Shown here: positions 1 through 5,496 of the stretch, in pieces
Numbering within the stretch: position 1 is the stretch's first letter
Layout of the letters: the number at the start of each line of letters is the position of its first letter
UHGV virus genome: UHGV-0067634
Direction: 5' to 3' (one strand)
Length of the DNA: 12,128 nt
Source: a virus
The notes under the pieces: generated by a model
What the model was told of the DNA's origin: nothing
Databases searched by the model: none
What the model saw: the letters and a program-made list of their open reading frames with translations, nothing else
Translations under genes and position numbers: made by a program

Positions 1-49
1 AAGCACAAAGCCTTGTTTGTCTCAGTTTTGTCTCATCAACCACAGCAAG

Positions 50-587
50 TCATCGATCGATTGAGGCTTGGATGATAGACTTCATGCCCTTCAGTACTTC
101 ATCCTCTATCGCTTCTCCGTCGCTCGTAATCAGCACCTTACCCTTCCGCCTGGAGAATTGTGTAAAGACGTCGCTCAGGATCAGTAGCACGTCACCAACA
201 GTTAGCTTAATAAACTGGTCAATTACGACATAGCTTTTAGACGTATCAAGGATACGGCCGCTCTCTGTCGTGCACATTTCATGATGGTTCAAGCAGTTAC
301 CAACAAAATCCTGCGCCGATGATGGAGATCCTATATCACAGCCCTCTACCGTAGTCGTAGAACATGAACAGGCGTTTCTCACCATCGTTAGGTGAGATAT
401 CTTTGAAGGTGGTGACATAGCTCTCGATCCACTTGTTGGCTTCGTGGAAAGACCAGTGCCAGTTGACATTTGCCATCTCGTTGACAAAGTCCTGCGTTAA
501 AACCGTCTTACTCCCGTCTGGTTGTGATTTGTTTGCTGCCGTAAAGCGCTTGGTATCTCGTATCTTCGTGCCATAATCATCTCCCCA
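50..587 (-). pseudogene. Frame-disrupted ORF remnant: protein-like translation in one frame over 336..587 (ends ...FMFYDYGRGL*) and in another frame over about 50..335 (ends ...KGMKSIIQASIDR*)
   Basis: Hand translation of the minus strand. The ATG at 572..574 has a GGGGAG RBS but its frame stops after 25 codons (stop 497..499). A second frame is open 336..587 with no in-frame start near its 5' end. The track ORF 50..487 begins at a TTG and its first ~50 residues look like out-of-frame junk. Family unknown. Confidence 0.3.
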
Positions 588-591
588 TTAT

Positions 592-611
592 TACTGTGTA
601 TAAACACAGCA
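592..611. promoter_or_regulatory. LexA-box-like (SOS box) palindrome TACTGTGTATAAACACAGCA
   Basis: CTGT-N8-ACAG with an AT-rich centre; 16 of 20 positions match the consensus TACTGTATATATATACAGTA as I recall it. It lies about 12 bp upstream (minus strand) of the GGGGAG RBS and ATG at 572..574, and about 87 bp upstream (plus strand) of the acyltransferase start. Confidence 0.4.
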
Positions 612-697
612 CCTACAGATATTGCTATCGATCAAGCCTTTCATGGGTGTTAAACTGCGCCCCTTAATACTTACTGCTATTTTTCTGAGTAAATATA

Positions 698-1846
698 ATG
701 ACTAACCAGTTTGCCATTACCATTGCTATATCCTGCTTCGTGATTGCGATGGTGATCTTCAGTTTGCCAGTCTTCAAATTCCTGGACGAAGAGGCTCAAC
801 CAAAGAGAACGAACAGTCTTGATGGGATGAGATTTATTCTTGCATCATTGGTAATATTTCATCACATGGACTGTTTTTATTCTTACTATACCACAGGTAA
901 ATGGGAGCCAGTTTCCTACTTTCTTTTCGCTGCCGGAAAGTATGGCGTTGCACTTTTTTTTATGACTACAGCTTACCTTTTTTGGGGCAAGGTAAGGATA
1001 AAAGATAGTGTTGATTGGGTTTCACTCTACAGAGGACGGTTTTTCAGGATTATCCCTTTAGCTGTATTCGCATCATTTGTCGCTATAATTTCATTGTTTA
1101 TTTTCACTAAGCCGTTCCCTCTGTATAACACCCCAATTTCAAATATATTTTCTTGGTTCGATGGTAGCTTATGGGATCACAAACCACCAGTAACAACGAT
1201 GCAGCGTCCAACTATAGCTTTGGCGGGTGTAACCTGGACTTTAAGATGGGAGTGGATGTTTTATTTTACTCTCCCTGCACTCTTTTTCTTTAGGAAACTT
1301 TCTTTTGAAATTTCAATAATTTTATTAGCATTTTCAATTTACCTCATGCCAAGCATAACCAAAGATGCATATCTTTGGTCATTTTTCTTCGCAGGAATGG
1401 TTTGCAGAGAGTTAAAGGAAAGAGTTTATATAACTGAGTCAAATGCAGAGTGGTTTTTATTAGCATCAATAATCCTCATCATAGTTGTCGACCCCACACT
1501 ATTTCGTGTTCCCGGAACGATATTCCTTGCCTTTATATTTTTCTCAATTTTGTCTGGAGGTAGCCTCTTTGGTTTACTCAAAACAAGAGCAGCTATTAGG
1601 CTTGGAACTATAAGTTATAGTCTATATATCACTCAAGGTTTAATTTTATTCCCTGCATACAACCTGTATATAAAAGAGTTTACGTTAAATCTTGATAGTT
1701 CATATTTTATATTCCTTTGCATGTCATACGCTGCCATTTGTTTTTTATCAGCAACAACCTATCATTTCATTGAGCTTCCTTTTATGAAAATAGGAGGTAG
1801 GAAAAGCACTAAGAAGCTAAACCAAGCCAATGTCTTAGATAAATGA
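698..1846 (+). CDS. Acyltransferase family 3 integral membrane protein, putative O-antigen O-acetyltransferase (serotype conversion)
   Basis: 382-aa ORF, hydrophobic throughout. Motif R-x3-LDGMRFILASLVIFHH resembles the acyltransferase-3 signature (R..LDGLRGIA....H) of Oac/OafA-type proteins. Sits in the slot between tailspike and phage end where P22 has gtrABC and Sf6 has oac. Visibly AT-rich versus the structural genes. The motif is preceded by a ~36-aa hydrophobic extension, so the true start is uncertain. Confidence 0.75.
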   Translation: MTNQFAITIAISCFVIAMVIFSLPVFKFLDEEAQPKRTNSLDGMRFILASLVIFHHMDCFYSYYTTGKWEPVSYFLFAAGKYGVALFFMTTAYLFWGKVRIKDSVDWVSLYRGRFFRIIPLAVFASFVAIISLFIFTKPFPLYNTPISNIFSWFDGSLWDHKPPVTTMQRPTIALAGVTWTLRWEWMFYFTLPALFFFRKLSFEISIILLAFSIYLMPSITKDAYLWSFFFAGMVCRELKERVYITESNAEWFLLASIILIIVVDPTLFRVPGTIFLAFIFFSILSGGSLFGLLKTRAAIRLGTISYSLYITQGLILFPAYNLYIKEFTLNLDSSYFIFLCMSYAAICFLSATTYHFIELPFMKIGGRKSTKKLNQANVLDK

Positions 1847-1887: not shown

Positions 1888-3861
1888 TTAGTTAAGGACC
1901 GTCCAGTCAGAACTATTTAACCCGTGCGATTTCCACCATTTGCTTGTCCCTGGAAGCCATACCTCTTGACCAATAAATCGAGGTGTCACGTTACCAACAG
2001 GAGTGCTCATTCCGGCACTTGTAACAACATATCCATATTTTGCTGGGCCTGTTCCATTATTAAGGATTGTATCCTTTGTTATGCCTGTTGCCCCATTGTA
2101 CCATTCCAAATCACTACCGCTAGCACCGCTAATAAAGTCAGGCATAAAGTGTGAAAATGAATTATTGGCATCCACTCTGGCACCATTGTAAGCCATATAA
2201 CCGCTAGCTTGAGTATTACTCCATCTCCCTCCTTTTACACTACCAGCAGATGAAGAGAAAAATCTTGCCGCATATCTTGCAAAACCGGCTATATTTATAT
2301 TATTCAATTCATAACCAGAAAGAGACGCAATTGACATACCATCATTATTAGGAATACCTGATGCTATTTGTGGGTTTGATGCATATCCTGTTAATGTGGC
2401 TCCGTTAATATATATCCCTGTGCTTGGCCCAGTCTCTGATGTGTATATTCCAACTCCAGAACAGTTAAAAACTTGAAGATCTGTGATTCTAACATTTCTG
2501 GCATAATGAAAGCTCAAGCCTCGCTCAGCTGGTGAATAGGTCTCGCGCATAGGATATCCGACATCACGCAAGCGAACTCCGTTAATGCTAATGTTGCTCG
2601 GATTCATACCTGGTGTTACTGACTCAAAACCTTCAAATGTAATGCCATTACCAACATTGATTCCCACTACATTACTGACGTGAATATCTGAGACATACCT
2701 TTTAAATCCGATAACTCCATGGGCACAATTACGACCAACAACGTTGGTGATAATGCAATTACGCGTGCCTCCAGGCTCCCCTGCAGAACAATAAATTCCT
2801 AAATCCCGACAATTCTCTACGAGAAGACCGTCAATGACGGAATCTGTAGCGCTTGCATACATCAGGCATGAATCAGGCGCATTAACAAGTTCAACATTTT
2901 TTAGTGTGCAACGTGCTCCACCAAAAGTAAGGATATCAGCTACAGCATAAAGCTTGTTGTTTTCTTGATTACCATCAATGCGTAAATCACGTATATGAAC
3001 ATCATTAGCCCCCATGTTGTGAACAAGGTAGTAGGCCTGTGTTTTATCAACACAAATATCATCCGCAAATTTAAGCCATCCCCCAGCACCGATAAGTATT
3101 GTTTTCTCCTTGATCTGTAATCCAGTAAATATCCATGGATCTCCATCTTTATTCTTTGGAGTAATCTTTATTGCACAGTAACCAGGAACAGATCCAGAAT
3201 AATCAAGTGCTGCCTGTAGCGTCTGCTGATCTGTCATGCTACCAAACATAAAAGAACGCACATCAATACAGTCATCAACCTGTAATTCCAATTGTAGGCC
3301 ATCAGAACGGTCAACAATGACAATACCATCTGCAGTAATACCCGTATTTGGAGTTACTGAGTACTTATTATAACTCCCGGCAGAGTTTTTAACCGCCACC
3401 AAGCGTCCTTCAACAGTTGTGTTTATTGTCAGATCAGTCTGGTTATCCAACTCCATGGCAATGCCGCCAATAAGAGCGGCCCCTTCAGGCTGTGATAGTT
3501 TGTTTTTAAATGTGTCTAATGCTTGATCTGGGTCATACTTAAGAACGTCAGGAAAGTAATGCTGTTGCACCATATATGAATCATATACAGCCATACTATA
3601 ATTCTGTGTAGTAAGAAACTTACATATCTGCCCGTTGTGAACAGGGTAGCCACCAGAATTAATTATTATTGGCTGAGAAACCGGAACAGGAGTGCCATTC
3701 TCACCTTCAATATATACCTGAATTTGGTTTGAAGGTGATGTTGGATCTGTATCAGGTAATCCTATAAACATTTTGCCATTGGCTACGGCTTTAAAAGAGC
3801 GAGCCATAGTGAAGAGTTGCGATGGCATGCTTACCACAACATTGGCTGTGATGTTTGTCAT
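1888..3861 (-). CDS. Tailspike protein: P22 gp9-like N-terminal head-binding domain fused to a different beta-helix receptor-binding domain
   Basis: 657-aa ORF. The first ~110 aa (MTNITANVVVS...RSFKAVANGK...VLKYDPDQ) align by eye with the P22 tailspike head-binding domain as I recall it. The remainder is Gly/Asn/Ser/Thr/Val-rich like a right-handed beta-helix but does not resemble the P22 endorhamnosidase domain. RBS AGGA 7 nt upstream of the ATG at 3859..3861. Confidence 0.9.
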   Translation of the reverse strand: MTNITANVVVSMPSQLFTMARSFKAVANGKMFIGLPDTDPTSPSNQIQVYIEGENGTPVPVSQPIIINSGGYPVHNGQICKFLTTQNYSMAVYDSYMVQQHYFPDVLKYDPDQALDTFKNKLSQPEGAALIGGIAMELDNQTDLTINTTVEGRLVAVKNSAGSYNKYSVTPNTGITADGIVIVDRSDGLQLELQVDDCIDVRSFMFGSMTDQQTLQAALDYSGSVPGYCAIKITPKNKDGDPWIFTGLQIKEKTILIGAGGWLKFADDICVDKTQAYYLVHNMGANDVHIRDLRIDGNQENNKLYAVADILTFGGARCTLKNVELVNAPDSCLMYASATDSVIDGLLVENCRDLGIYCSAGEPGGTRNCIITNVVGRNCAHGVIGFKRYVSDIHVSNVVGINVGNGITFEGFESVTPGMNPSNISINGVRLRDVGYPMRETYSPAERGLSFHYARNVRITDLQVFNCSGVGIYTSETGPSTGIYINGATLTGYASNPQIASGIPNNDGMSIASLSGYELNNINIAGFARYAARFFSSSAGSVKGGRWSNTQASGYMAYNGARVDANNSFSHFMPDFISGASGSDLEWYNGATGITKDTILNNGTGPAKYGYVVTSAGMSTPVGNVTPRFIGQEVWLPGTSKWWKSHGLNSSDWTVLN

Positions 3862-4300: not shown

Positions 4301-5203
4301 TCAGTAGTTATGTACTGAAGGAGGCAATTCTTTATTCTTAAGTCTCATCCATGCGGAAAGATTCGTTGGTCCGTCTGGCTCATTGATATCAACATCTCGT
4401 GTGTGATTGATTAAAACGTCTCTCGCCATTCCGATAACATACGAGAACTCATGACCATAGTCGTAGCATCTGCCGGAATAGTTCGATTGAATTTGTTTTA
4501 ATGCCGGATACAGTTCACGGAATAATGCCTGTGAACGGTTGGCATAATCCCATAACCATACAAGGCTGTTTGCTTCTTTTGCAGAAAGCTCGTTGGTTTT
4601 CTTCTCTTGTTTGCCAATGAACTCACCTTCAAGCACTACCCTGTGGATGTACTCTACGGCTTTCGGTATCTGAGATGCATCAAGCTCTTCAATACTTTCC
4701 ACATTGAAATGCTGATGAATCATTGCATAAGCTTCTGGGTACATTAGATGCTTTTTGCTGACCAGCATATTTACAGCATCACGAAGCGGAGTCCTGTCAT
4801 CAACAGATGTTTTCTTACGTGCATTTTCTGCCTTTCCCTTCGTCCAGCAGTCATGCAGCACAGTAAAGCATTCTTCCTGGTACTGAATCAGTTTATCACG
4901 GATGTCAGCACGAACTTTCTCAGGGTTGATGCTGAACAGCCATCCATTTAACTTCTTCAAAGGAAGGCAGAGTAGCTTACGAAGCTTACCATCAGCGGCA
5001 ACCATGTTCATATGAACACAGTTGAATTTGCTAATCTGCTTCATGAGTTTTGTTTGCTGCGTTGACCAGCTCATTCCAAGGTTTTCAACGATTGGCTTCA
5101 TCGCAACATATGCAACTCCGGCAGCCATGGCGGTGATAATTTGCTGACCGTTGAATGGTACGTAAGAGGTGTTCACTGCTTCTAAAATTGCTATACTATT
5201 CAT
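4301..5203 (-). CDS. ant: Antirepressor Ant (immI region)
   Basis: 300-aa ORF directly downstream of arc in the same orientation, matching P22 immI gene order. The longer track ORF (to 5269) starts at TTG; the ATG at 5201..5203 ([10 protein letters not shown]...) has a GGAG RBS and gives the expected size. Product assigned by synteny and length, not by remembered sequence. Confidence 0.8.
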
Positions 5204-5271
5204 GTTGGTTTTTCTCCACGGATTTACTGACAAACGAAGCCCTGACTGTTCCCGCAGTTGGGGCTTCAACT
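5204..5271 (+). ncRNA. sar: Possible sar antisense RNA locus (arc-ant intercistronic region); ends not determined
   Basis: In P22 a ~68-nt antisense RNA is made from the arc-ant intercistronic region and pairs with the ant RBS. Here that region is 68 bp and holds a 13-bp imperfect hairpin (5235..5266, two G-U pairs). Promoter and 3' end could not be fixed from sequence. Confidence 0.3.
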
Positions 5272-5433
5272 TTACGCGCCAATGCGCCCTTCCTTCTTAA
5301 AGCTTTCCATTACTCTCTGATAAATCTCAGAGTTAACAGACCGACCATTCTCTTCCGCCACCTTGCGTACCAAATCCAATACTTCTTTAGGCCACCGCAA
5401 ATTGAACTGCGGCATTTTGCTCATTCCTTTCAT
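5272..5433 (-). CDS. arc: Arc repressor (ribbon-helix-helix)
   Basis: 53-aa product [53 protein letters not shown] matches P22 Arc as I recall it, apart from one Lys where I remember Arg16. Start set at the ATG at 5431..5433; the track's upstream extension is not real. Confidence 0.95.
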
Positions 5434-5448
5434 GTTCACCTCATAATA

Positions 5449-5467
5449 TAGGTCCACGGTGGACCTA
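5449..5467. promoter_or_regulatory. Mnt operator (Omnt), perfect palindrome TAGGTCCACGGTGGACCTA
   Basis: 19-bp perfect palindrome containing the 17-bp P22 Mnt operator core AGGTCCACGGTGGACCT. It overlaps the predicted Pant start site. Confidence 0.85.
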
Positions 5468-5496
5468 TTGAGAATATAGTAGAGTGCTTCTATCAT
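5468..5496 (+). promoter_or_regulatory. Pmnt promoter
   Basis: On the plus strand: -35 TTGAGA (5468..5473), 17-bp spacer, -10 TATCAT (5491..5496). GGAG RBS 7 nt before the mnt ATG. Overlaps Pant back-to-back, as described for P22 immI. Confidence 0.6.

Follow-up and report, generated by a model that had tools for sequence, protein, structure and literature searches.

A probable pseudogenised two-gene cassette with a predicted LexA operator in a P22-like Escherichia coli prophage

The minus strand at positions 50-635 of the virus genome UHGV-0067634 (12,128 nucleotides, the whole stretch analysed here and called the window below) appears to hold the pseudogenised form of a LexA-repressed two-gene cassette, a reading to which we assign a probability of about 85%. 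The intact version of this cassette, which consists of a small protein with a predicted winged-helix fold and a UmuD'-like protein, is carried by many temperate phages of Enterobacterales beside the attachment site. Since the window copy is a mutated remnant of such a common prophage cassette, it is very probably an ordinary pseudogene, carried as dead cargo by a P22-like E. coli prophage. The original prediction had described a single frame-disrupted ORF, whereas we found two adjacent minus-strand genes forming an operon. The annotation of the window is therefore corrected from one enigmatic frameshifted gene to a real (predicted) LexA operator followed by two pseudogenes.

The LexA (SOS) box occupies positions 592-611, reads TACTGTGTATAAACACAGCA on the plus strand and TGCTGTGTTTATACACAGTA in gene orientation, and has the form CTGT-N8-ACAG. 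As a standard, we used the gammaproteobacterial box, i.e., a CTGT-N8-ACAG 16-bp core in a 20-bp AT-rich palindrome near TACTGTATATATATACAGTA. The bare pattern is not rare by itself: one occurrence was detected in the window versus 0.19 expected, and at least one was present in 37 of 200 shuffles. When scored with a position weight matrix, the box reached 21.3-21.6 bits and the runner-up site in the 12 kb only 5.3-10.8 bits, so that no other LexA-type site in the window comes close to the palindrome that had been noticed earlier. Because of this margin, and because a LexA box is kept upstream of the starts of homologous first genes (gene 1), the match is beyond chance and is predicted to be a genuine LexA operator. 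In a survey of 86 homologous loci, the box was found 11-45 nt upstream of the gene 1 start in 83, most of them in a main cluster at 14-23 nt, with a two-box class at 42-45 nt. The window box, 17 nt from the ATG at 574, lies inside the main cluster and matches the boxes of two intact relatives, L010 and L012, column for column in a DNA alignment. A chance palindrome in front of non-coding DNA is thus contradicted by the matrix score, by the conservation of the box and by the existence of family homologues.

The heterology index of the window box was approximately 5.3, calculated with a list of reference sites; functional Salmonella LexA boxes have indices of roughly 1.5-13 (PMC8072944). Compared with the boxes of other cassettes, the window box ranks near the bottom, with only 2 of 45 scoring lower. 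Its score still falls within the range of the listed chromosomal E. coli LexA sites.

In 32 distinct homologous upstream regions, TTGATC is located 17 nt upstream of the TACTGT found in the left half of the box, and in several others the distance is 18 nt. The left half of the box probably doubles as the -10 element of the cassette promoter. The corresponding candidate sigma-70 promoter in the window (606-635, minus strand) has a -35 element TTGATC at 635-630, an 18-nt spacer and a -10 element TGCTGT at 611-606, in which G replaces A at the second position, a change shared by only one intact locus (L017). Owing to this G, the window promoter may be weak or dead; a consensus scan found no promoter at 606-635. 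The GGGGAG Shine-Dalgarno sequence and ATG just 3' of the box on the minus strand were as originally described. The former is at 586-581, 6 nt upstream of the ATG at 574, an additional ATG is present at 580, and homologues have GGAGGG or GGAGG at the position of the Shine-Dalgarno sequence.

The gene 1 remnant extends from 574 to 336 on the minus strand and belongs to PHROG 3893, a family of 79-aa proteins with a predicted winged-helix fold. By homology to proteins beginning with MARRYEI, the ATG at 574 is assigned as its true start. The original frame is kept only in the first 10 codons from this ATG, whose product, MARRYEIPSA, is identical to the N-termini of the homologues P0001, P0002 and P0004. 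As now read, the 5' part of the gene (497-574) has 25 codons (MARRYEIPSALRQQTNHNQTGVRRF) and ends with TAA at 499-497, in agreement with the earlier observation of an ATG frame stopping after 25 codons. Comparison with intact relatives (DNA alignment of L010, L012 and L005) places the real frame disruption at a 1-nt deletion between 546 and 545, where the window has GCGC-TTTACG and the relatives GCGC(T/C)TTTACG; the window reads GCGCTTTACG across this site. Insertion of one base at 545/546 yields a 79-aa protein with 78% identity to P0001. The remainder of gene 1 (336-545, minus strand) comprises 69 codons followed by TGA at 338-336 and is out of frame with its own start. This remainder matched phrog_3893 with E = 3.7e-24 over profile positions 11-78, and in the HMM search of the joined translation that had been proposed, the joined reading matched positions 1-78. 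Coding is indeed split over two frames, as had been noted: past the deletion it runs in a second frame as far as the TGA at 338-336, and from 334 it is back in the first frame until the TGA at 52-50. The change at 335/336, however, is a normal gene boundary and not a lesion. The joined translation, previously considered unplaceable in any family, is assigned to PHROG 3893 in its gene 1 part and to PHROG 3469 in its gene 2 part.

Public annotation at this locus consists of just a 46-aa "hypothetical protein" (476-336, minus strand), which lies inside the gene 1 remainder. Searches with the window translations and with intact gene 1 homologues gave no Pfam match at E values up to 10, nothing credible in NCBIfam and no match to a PADLOC defence model. 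In the literature searched, no paper characterising gene 1 was found; one article contains just a passing remark on a hypothetical protein annotated "DNA polymerase V subunit" (PMC7317114). Intact gene 1 frequently carries the wrong label "DNA polymerase V" or is overlooked entirely, the latter for example in phages mEp390 and Eeyore.

Expression of gene 1 by a programmed -1 ribosomal frameshift, or a frameshift that fuses gene 1 to gene 2, had to be considered, as a shift by -1 directly behind codon 10 (GCT) would give exactly the homologous protein, and at another locus, L005, the loss of 1 nt generates the heptamer A_AAA_AAG in phase. However, no slippery X_XXY_YYZ heptamer is present around 545/546 (CCA AGC GCT TTA CGG), tRNA-Ala would be unable to re-pair at the -1 position, and the shifted frame in the window meets the TAA at 499-497. 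Furthermore, gene 1 is an intact, single-frame ORF of 79-80 aa in all 86 surveyed homologues, and the gene 2 frame is no more open across gene 1 than a control frame (median 30 versus 27 codons). With neither a slippery site nor a conserved open alternative frame, programmed frameshifting, one of the options raised originally, is rejected as extremely improbable.

The gene 2 remnant (50-334, minus strand) contains 94 codons followed by TGA at 52-50 and resembles the short UmuD'/HumD-like proteins of PHROG 3469. Its former start codon at 334-332 is now ATA (TGATATAGGATCTCC in the window versus TGATATGGGCTTTCC in L010), while the 80 homologous loci with gene 2 have ATG in 79 cases and GTG in one. 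Membership in PHROG 3469, whose proteins are ~105 aa long, was defined by a significant profile match, an invariant N-terminus MGFPSPA and a C-terminal V-x-V-x-G strand. The remnant matched phrog_3469 ("UmuD-like") with E = 2e-17, so that its descent from this family is clear; judged by its sequence, it is a member by ancestry and not an intact one. The N-terminal motif reads IGSPSSA in the window, including the changes F3S and P6S, and altogether the window loses M1, F3, P6 and E12, which are invariant in seven intact gene 2 homologues. Translation can be initiated at ATA at a very low level, and gene 2 also has an ATG in frame at position 377; a crippled protein may still be produced to some extent from either codon.

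The 3' end of gene 2 has been replaced. When window positions 1-160 were aligned with L007, L008, phage N7 and the gene 2 3' end of L010, the homology to the cassette gene ended, and that to the att side began, at a recombination junction located at 83-102 (megablast limits were 91 or 102). Positions 1-102 correspond to a conserved att-proximal segment of P22-like prophages, which was outside the original cassette and now supplies the gene 2 stop codon; the final ~13-17 codons of the present ORF are of foreign origin, and ~24 native codons have been lost from the end of the gene. This segment is 91-98% identical to the stretch directly after int in phages N7 and HF4s, and also to a stretch that immediately precedes gtrA in 114 E. 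coli chromosomes. Megablast of positions 1-700 against phages and complete E. coli genomes gave no match beyond 1-102.

Compared with the closest intact relatives, L010 (from E. coli) and L012, the window has thus accumulated the 546/545 deletion, the ATG to ATA change at 334-332 and a divergent 3' end from ~83-102. Codon changes on the window branch were 10 synonymous and 26 non-synonymous, versus 30 and 13, respectively, on the L010 and L012 branches (Fisher p = 3e-4). Pairwise omega between the window and L010 was 0.33 in gene 1 and reached 0.44 in gene 2, versus 0.06-0.17 for intact pairs. These values point to relaxed constraint on the window lineage. The non-synonymous excess would also fit positive selection, which is disfavoured because the frameshift, the start loss and the truncation occur together. 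Of the options originally offered, that of a decayed DNA-damage-inducible accessory gene is therefore the one supported, by orthologous boxes at homologous loci, by several independent lesions and by the non-synonymous excess.

If the cassette were functional, the frameshift and the ATA would have to be sequencing or assembly errors in a homopolymer-poor region. The deletion does sit in a short T-run (TTTT to TTT), and frameshifted or fused forms of gene 1 are present in public protein sets (P0288, P0303 and P0372), some of which may be errors. However, a run of 3-4 nt is untypical as an error hotspot, and the same truncated 46-aa ORF was found on nine E. coli contigs of different lengths from at least four NCBI accessions, which makes a sequencing error unlikely. 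In addition, the frameshift is only one of 4-5 defects, and an error there leaves the ATG to ATA change, F3S, P6S, the replaced 3' end and the 10:26 ratio unexplained. We consider the suggestion of a sequencing frameshift very unlikely on these grounds. The window is identical to one E. coli contig, L006, and an example of a genome carrying the prophage is GCA_023890495.1.

Outside the window, the pair of gene 1 and a UmuD'-like gene appears to be a standard, widespread LexA-regulated cassette. Of the 82 loci that could be assessed, 80 had a gene 2 start (ATG or GTG) no more than ~2 nt from the stop of gene 1. Phages mEp390, Eeyore, Midgardsormr38 and phiES15 each contain the adjacent gene pair between the tail-fibre genes and attP/int, preceded by a near-consensus LexA box; in mEp390 and Eeyore, the LexA-box region is common to the cassette and a divergent dinI-like gene. 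Other E. coli prophages show the same layout: the cassette of L094 is intact and flanked by a divergent gtrA and by int, and L093 carries a second truncated remnant next to a divergent acyltransferase. The family was represented on more than 580 viral contigs, with 544 protein clusters for gene 1 and 2146 for gene 2. A scan of species-representative genomes detected one locus only (65% identity), and no match was obtained when gene 2 of the window itself served as query against viral contigs, its relatives being reached only by alignment-based queries. Several long matches initially looked like natural fusions of gene 1 and gene 2; P0288, P0303 and P0372 proved to be frameshift read-throughs and P0257 a repeat artefact.

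With respect to genomic setting, the cassette resembles the moron locus that P22-like phages have between tailspike and attP (gtrABC, oac), both in position and in mosaic behaviour. At the int/att side, it is oriented divergently from a gene for O-antigen modification (in E. coli 1919D3, it is found beside gtrA) and is joined to the att-side segment common to N7, HF4s and many E. coli prophages. The difference is in the cargo, which here would be an SOS-regulated DNA-damage module rather than surface modification.

The predicted fold of gene 2 links the cassette to the SOS mutagenesis proteins. In an hmmsearch, the profile of the intact gene 2 family matched UmuD from PDB with E = 4e-7, covering UmuD residues 25-137, and hhalign gave a probability of 97.3%, the SGDSMIDGG loop falling into a gap of 11 residues. 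An AF2 model of intact gene 2 (pLDDT 78) had UmuD', the LexA C-terminal domain and the CI C-terminal domain as best Foldseek matches, with TM scores of 0.5-0.6. From these profile and model comparisons, the intact family is predicted to have an S24 beta-fold homologous to UmuD'. The ~105-aa class, to which the window copy belongs, has no catalytic-serine loop in the alignment, Ser60 being covered by the 11-residue gap, and the position of Lys97 is not conserved (R in both L010 and the window). The Ser60/Lys97 dyad is required for self-cleavage of UmuD and not for UmuD' function. The short class scored below the cut-offs of NF051876 (26 versus 120 bits) and NF007621 (20-22 versus 110 bits) and did not match Pfam Peptidase_S24; the window translation had no Pfam match. 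The sub-threshold NCBIfam matches of this class to HumD/UmuD fall on the N-terminal motif only. A second gene 2 class of 125-130 aa, found after the same gene 1, scored 177-219 bits with NF051876 (cut-off 120) and is, on this evidence, bona fide HumD.

HumD of phage P1 is the closest known parallel. It is likewise a phage UmuD' homologue made in the pre-cleaved form, starting with MGFPSPA, and has no adjacent umuC; furthermore, the 125-130 aa class that follows the same gene 1 passes the NF051876 cut-off. The window class differs in its length of ~105 aa, its score of 26 bits and its 11-residue deletion over the Ser60 loop; the 79-aa gene 1 invariably stands in front of it, and the copy in the window is a pseudogene. 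When gene 1 was used in tblastn against phage records, no P1-like phage was present among the organism names of the 39 matches. P1 HumD was reportedly described by McLenigan and colleagues in 1999 as a homologue of UmuD' that is functional and facilitates mutagenesis in the SOS response. With E. coli UmuD/UmuD' (umuDC, peptidase S24), the cassette shares a LexA box near the start codon and, as predicted from sequence, LexA repression, as well as a common fold and the N-terminal arm motif GFPSPAxDY. It differs from umuDC in that its protein has neither the 24-residue pro-peptide nor the Ser/Lys catalytic dyad, and in that no umuC partner adjoins the short gene 2 class, an upstream winged-helix-like gene being present instead.

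These features suggest how the intact cassette might operate. With the sigma-70 -10 element TACTGT within the left half of the box, LexA would be expected to block the promoter in undamaged cells. DNA damage activates RecA, which leads to self-cleavage of LexA and transcription of LexA-repressed operons. Genes 1 and 2 closely abut (TGAnATG) and are probably translationally coupled, and the gene 2 product would start exactly at the residue that is exposed in UmuD by RecA-mediated cleavage (MGFPSPA...). By analogy with P1 HumD, it would most likely join or mimic host UmuD' in the Pol V/RecA-filament machinery after damage. Upon SOS induction, the window copy would yield at most the 25-aa peptide and non-functional fragments. 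A more far-reaching and tentative idea, which we regard as rather unlikely, is that the intact relatives represent an uncharacterised, widespread SOS-induced module, in which a winged-helix protein and a protease-dead, pre-cleaved UmuD' mimic reprogram the Pol V/RecA-filament response. If so, the role of the module would exceed that of P1 HumD, for example if it titrated UmuD or UmuC, or competed with repressors on the RecA filament. Ready-made UmuD' analogues supplied by prophages under SOS control could influence damage-induced mutagenesis in Enterobacterales, and the interest rests with the intact cassette family and not with the decayed window copy.

The intact cassette might instead encode a LexA-controlled antirepressor or SOS modulator similar to Tum of phage 186 or to Gifsy GfoA with DinI, in which case the window copy would be a dead antirepressor. 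Enterobacterial prophages are well known to encode small antirepressors in small operons under control of host LexA, frequently in association with dinI homologues (PMC3121763), and the box region common to the cassette and a dinI-like gene in mEp390 and Eeyore would fit this arrangement. The predicted repressor C-terminal domain fold of gene 2 suggests that the protein could heterodimerise with a CI-type repressor. However, neither cassette protein showed similarity to the Ant or DinI families (Pfam, E up to 10), and the cassette is found at the att/tail-fibre end, whereas Gifsy antirepressors are in the early region near replication genes. The sister class of gene 2 is also true HumD, and the P22-like prophage of the window already has its own Ant/Arc/sar immI system. 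An antirepressor function is thus unlikely, and a UmuD'-like function of gene 2 is preferred. In Rfam and tRNA scans, the sar RNA at 5204-5271 was the sole match, with nothing in 1-700.

A final consideration is that the genes may be dead and the LexA promoter kept for a new use, either in SOS-dependent control of the divergent O-antigen acyltransferase (698-1846) or in read-through into the neighbouring toxin-antitoxin locus ibs/sib. Beside its decayed ORFs, the window copy has retained the box, -35 element and RBS, and the L093 remnant also retains a CTG-N10-CAG box beside its divergent acyltransferase. However, the window and L093 share no conserved sequence on the upstream side of the box, and over short times short elements are expected to outlast decaying ORFs by chance. 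Moreover, the box precedes the acyltransferase ATG by 86 nt, which puts it farther upstream than any plausible -35 element, and it is therefore not placed to repress this gene. Such reuse is distinctly unlikely compared with simple decay of the whole cassette. On the other side of the cassette, a matching contig contains an Ibs toxin gene ~280 nt past the stop of gene 2. The toxin gene is oriented like gene 2 and has SIB RNA on its antisense strand, and only one weak terminator-like hairpin separates it from the cassette. A surviving window promoter, with neither functional genes nor a strong terminator behind it, could give rise to read-through past the prophage end into ibs/sib.

The DNA at 50-611 holds the remains of two genes. 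The original prediction, one ORF split across two frames and fitting no family, was correct in that two coding frames are present, but these belong to two PHROG families, which also supply the missing assignment. The frame at 336-566 (minus strand) matched phrog_3893 (79-aa profile, E = 3.7e-24; the profile has no function assigned), and the frame at 50-334 matched phrog_3469, "UmuD-like protein" (106-aa profile, E = 2e-17). These are designated gene 1 (574..336) and gene 2 (334..50). Both were detected by tblastn in dozens of temperate phages of Klebsiella, Escherichia, Enterobacter, Erwinia, Cronobacter and Pantoea, adjacent every time and in constant order; in mEp390, Eeyore, Midgardsormr38 and phiES15, the pair is located between tail-fibre genes and attP/int. 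In intact relatives the boundary reads ...CTGTGATATGGGCTTTCC..., i.e. gene 1 stop codon, one base and gene 2 ATG, and therefore the frame change at 335/336 is an ordinary gene boundary, and the closely abutting genes are probably translationally coupled. At E <= 0.001, the searches retrieved 544 clusters of gene 1 and 2146 of gene 2; gene 1 comes down to 206 representatives when grouped at 50% identity. The cassette was confirmed on 581 viral contigs. Among 5426 complete genomes of E. coli, a nucleotide-level relative was detectable in just six; E. coli 1919D3 (locus L094) has an intact cassette between divergent gtrA and int. Gene 1 is unannotated in mEp390 (L001 2501-2737) and Eeyore (L002 2501-2731), where short opposite-strand ORFs are annotated instead.

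The predicted palindrome at 592-611 (plus strand, TACTGTGTATAAACACAGCA) was present, followed on the minus strand by GGGGAG at the Shine-Dalgarno position (586-581) and ATG codons at 580 and 574. The bare CTGT-N8-ACAG pattern was only weakly informative: it was found once in the window against 0.19 expected, and in 37 of 200 shuffles. Score and conservation were decisive in predicting a real and orthologous LexA box. With two weight matrices, one from 45 distinct cassette boxes and the other from a separate list of E. coli chromosomal LexA sites, the box scored 21.3-21.6 bits, and the runner-up in the 12 kb scored 5.3-10.8 bits. This score is within the span of genuine chromosomal sites and among the weaker ones for the cassette (2 of the 45 boxes score lower). 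Among 86 homologous loci (80 viral contigs, four phages and two bacterial contigs), 83 had a near-consensus LexA box ahead of gene 1, at 11-45 nt from its start; spacings cluster mainly at 14-23 nt, which includes the 17 nt of the window. The left half of the box, TACTGT, is preceded by a TTGATC -35 hexamer at a distance of 17 nt in no fewer than 32 distinct upstream regions, and of 18 nt in several others. Because of this spacing, the -10 hexamer of the putative promoter is embedded in the operator, and the two overlap. The window has a candidate -35 TTGATC at 635-630 (minus strand) with an 18-nt spacer and a candidate -10, TGCTGT, shared with one intact locus only (L017); a simple consensus scan called no promoter at the cassette. 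In mEp390 and Eeyore, the LexA-box region is common to the cassette and a divergent dinI-like gene. Many upstream regions of the loci with a 129-aa, HumD-class gene 2 (L061-L092) have two tandem LexA-like boxes, the proximal one often degenerate (…TATCCGGTA).

The ORF from ATG 574 ends after 25 codons, as had been noted, at TAA 499-497 (minus strand); a second frame has protein-like character from ~566 to TGA 338-336, and the first frame regains it from 334 to TGA 52-50. The closest intact gene 1 proteins have 79 aa and start MARRYEI(P/S)GAFTAAIK..., with P0001 being 78% identical. Aligning the DNA with the loci of these proteins, L010 (in E. coli) and L012, as well as with L005, placed the first lesion between 546 and 545, where one base is missing (GCGC-TTTACG versus GCGC(T/C)TTTACG); codons 1-10 keep the ATG frame and the remaining 69 are displaced. 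In gene 2, the start codon (334-332) is ATA, versus ATG in 79 homologues and GTG in one; the N-terminal motif is IGSPSSA versus MGFPSPA, invariant in seven intact homologues, and the invariant E12 is G. Going leftwards, gene 2 homology stops at about 83-102, where a conserved segment (1-102) takes over. The native last ~24 codons, including a conserved V-x-V-x-G strand corresponding to the UmuD' C-terminal strand, are lost, and 13-17 unrelated codons now close the ORF. The window branch has 10 synonymous and 26 non-synonymous codon changes of its own, versus 30 and 13 for L010 and L012 together (Fisher p = 3e-4), and pairwise omega against L010 was 0.33 for gene 1 and 0.44 for gene 2, versus 0.06-0.17 for intact pairs; this is evidence suggestive of relaxed selection. 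The orthologous box, four defects and relaxed selection favour the proposed decayed, DNA-damage-inducible accessory gene: the window carries one pseudogenised member of a catalogued prophage cassette, putatively under LexA control. Under SOS induction, this copy could yield at best a 25-aa peptide and fragments. Such decay is recurrent: at its argW/yfdC locus, E. coli 21AR0133 (L093 2480-2740) has a second remnant, with just a degenerate box (TGCTGTGTATTTATTCAGTA) and ~44 gene 1 codons, followed by intS and flanked by a divergent acyltransferase. The gene 1 deletion also puts the gene 1 start in frame with gene 2. After the TAA, a chimeric frame is open for 145 codons, from TTG 487 to TGA 50 (minus strand); with its in-frame ATG at 377, it could pass wrongly for a gene.

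A frameshift introduced by sequencing had been offered as one explanation. However, the residual 46-aa ORF (476..336, P0003) is recorded on nine E. coli contigs of differing sizes, under at least four NCBI protein accessions, so a one-off error is unlikely, and the other lesions would stay unexplained by it. Programmed frameshifting, also proposed, was rejected: the junction CCA AGC GCT TTA CGG contains no X_XXY_YYZ heptamer, -1 re-pairing is impossible for tRNA-Ala, gene 1 is single-frame in 86 of 86 homologues, and across gene 1 the gene 2 frame is not unusually open (median 30 codons versus 27 in the third frame). Natural gene fusions were likewise dismissed, as frameshift read-through accounts for the long "fusion" proteins of the representative library. 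In Enterobacter bugandensis (L005, ~3040-3060), an independent 1-nt loss in a gene 1 A-run has produced an A_AAA_AAG heptamer, in phase and of the dnaX type, where slippage by -1 would give back the full-length protein; this could be a coincidence or a slippage-tolerated lesion.

Gene 2 is a UmuD' homologue in which the catalytic loop is missing. The family profile aligned to UmuD residues 25-137 in solved structures of UmuD and UmuD' (E = 4e-7; hhalign probability 97.3%), with an 11-residue gap where UmuD has the SGDSMIDGG loop with catalytic Ser60. The nearest structures to an AF2 model (pLDDT 78) were those of UmuD' and of the C-terminal domains of LexA and the lambda/186 repressors. In UmuD, RecA-stimulated self-cleavage exposes exactly the residue where the gene 2 protein starts. 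The 125-130 aa class of gene 2 found behind the same gene 1 consists of bona fide HumD members (NF051876, 177-219 bits), whereas the ~105-aa class of the window scores 26 bits, below the cut-off of 120 bits, and contains no Pfam domain. By established SOS biology, LexA would repress the operon and DNA damage would lift this repression; gene 2 would then probably supply a UmuD' analogue or mimic, already in finished form, that acts on UmuC or the RecA filament, with gene 1 as its putative obligate partner. The precedent is P1 HumD, reportedly described by McLenigan et al. in 1999. The main functional rival is that the intact cassette encodes a LexA-controlled antirepressor or SOS-modulator, of the kind found in Gifsy phages and phage 186 (PMC3121763). 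Consistent with this, some cassettes and a divergent dinI-like gene have an operator region in common; however, the cassette differs in genomic position, and true HumD makes up the sister class of gene 2. While the window copy itself is of little interest, the intact cassette family deserves experiment.

The remainder of the window is the late, right end of a P22-like (Lederbergvirus) prophage, with ejection proteins and an Ant/Arc immI region in which ant (4301-5269, minus strand) and an arc-like gene (5272-5496, minus strand) adjoin the sar antisense RNA (5204-5271, plus strand; RF00262, 92 bits). A tailspike with a Head_binding domain (1888-3861, minus strand) is followed by a 382-aa Acyl_transf_3 O-antigen acyltransferase (698-1846, plus strand), which is divergent from the cassette and has the LexA box 86 nt upstream of its ATG; no promoter was identified for this gene. 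An E. coli contig (GCA_023890495.1, locus L006) is identical to the window across this region, and there the prophage end abuts an ibs/sib locus (L006 4469-4836, just past window position 1). The Ibs type I toxin gene has the orientation of the cassette and lies ~280 nt beyond the gene 2 stop; the antisense SIB RNA was also detected (RF00113, 143 bits). As only one weak terminator-like hairpin intervenes, SOS-driven read-through from the cassette into ibs is conceivable. Segment 1-102 has counterparts of 91-98% identity in two settings: phages N7 and HF4s carry one directly behind int, and 114 E. coli chromosomes, with prophages at differing integration sites, carry one 10-20 nt upstream of gtrA. 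It contains overlapping GATC sites at ~53-62 (ATCGATCGAT) and may be a gtr promoter or phase-variation region, here antisense into the cassette remnant.
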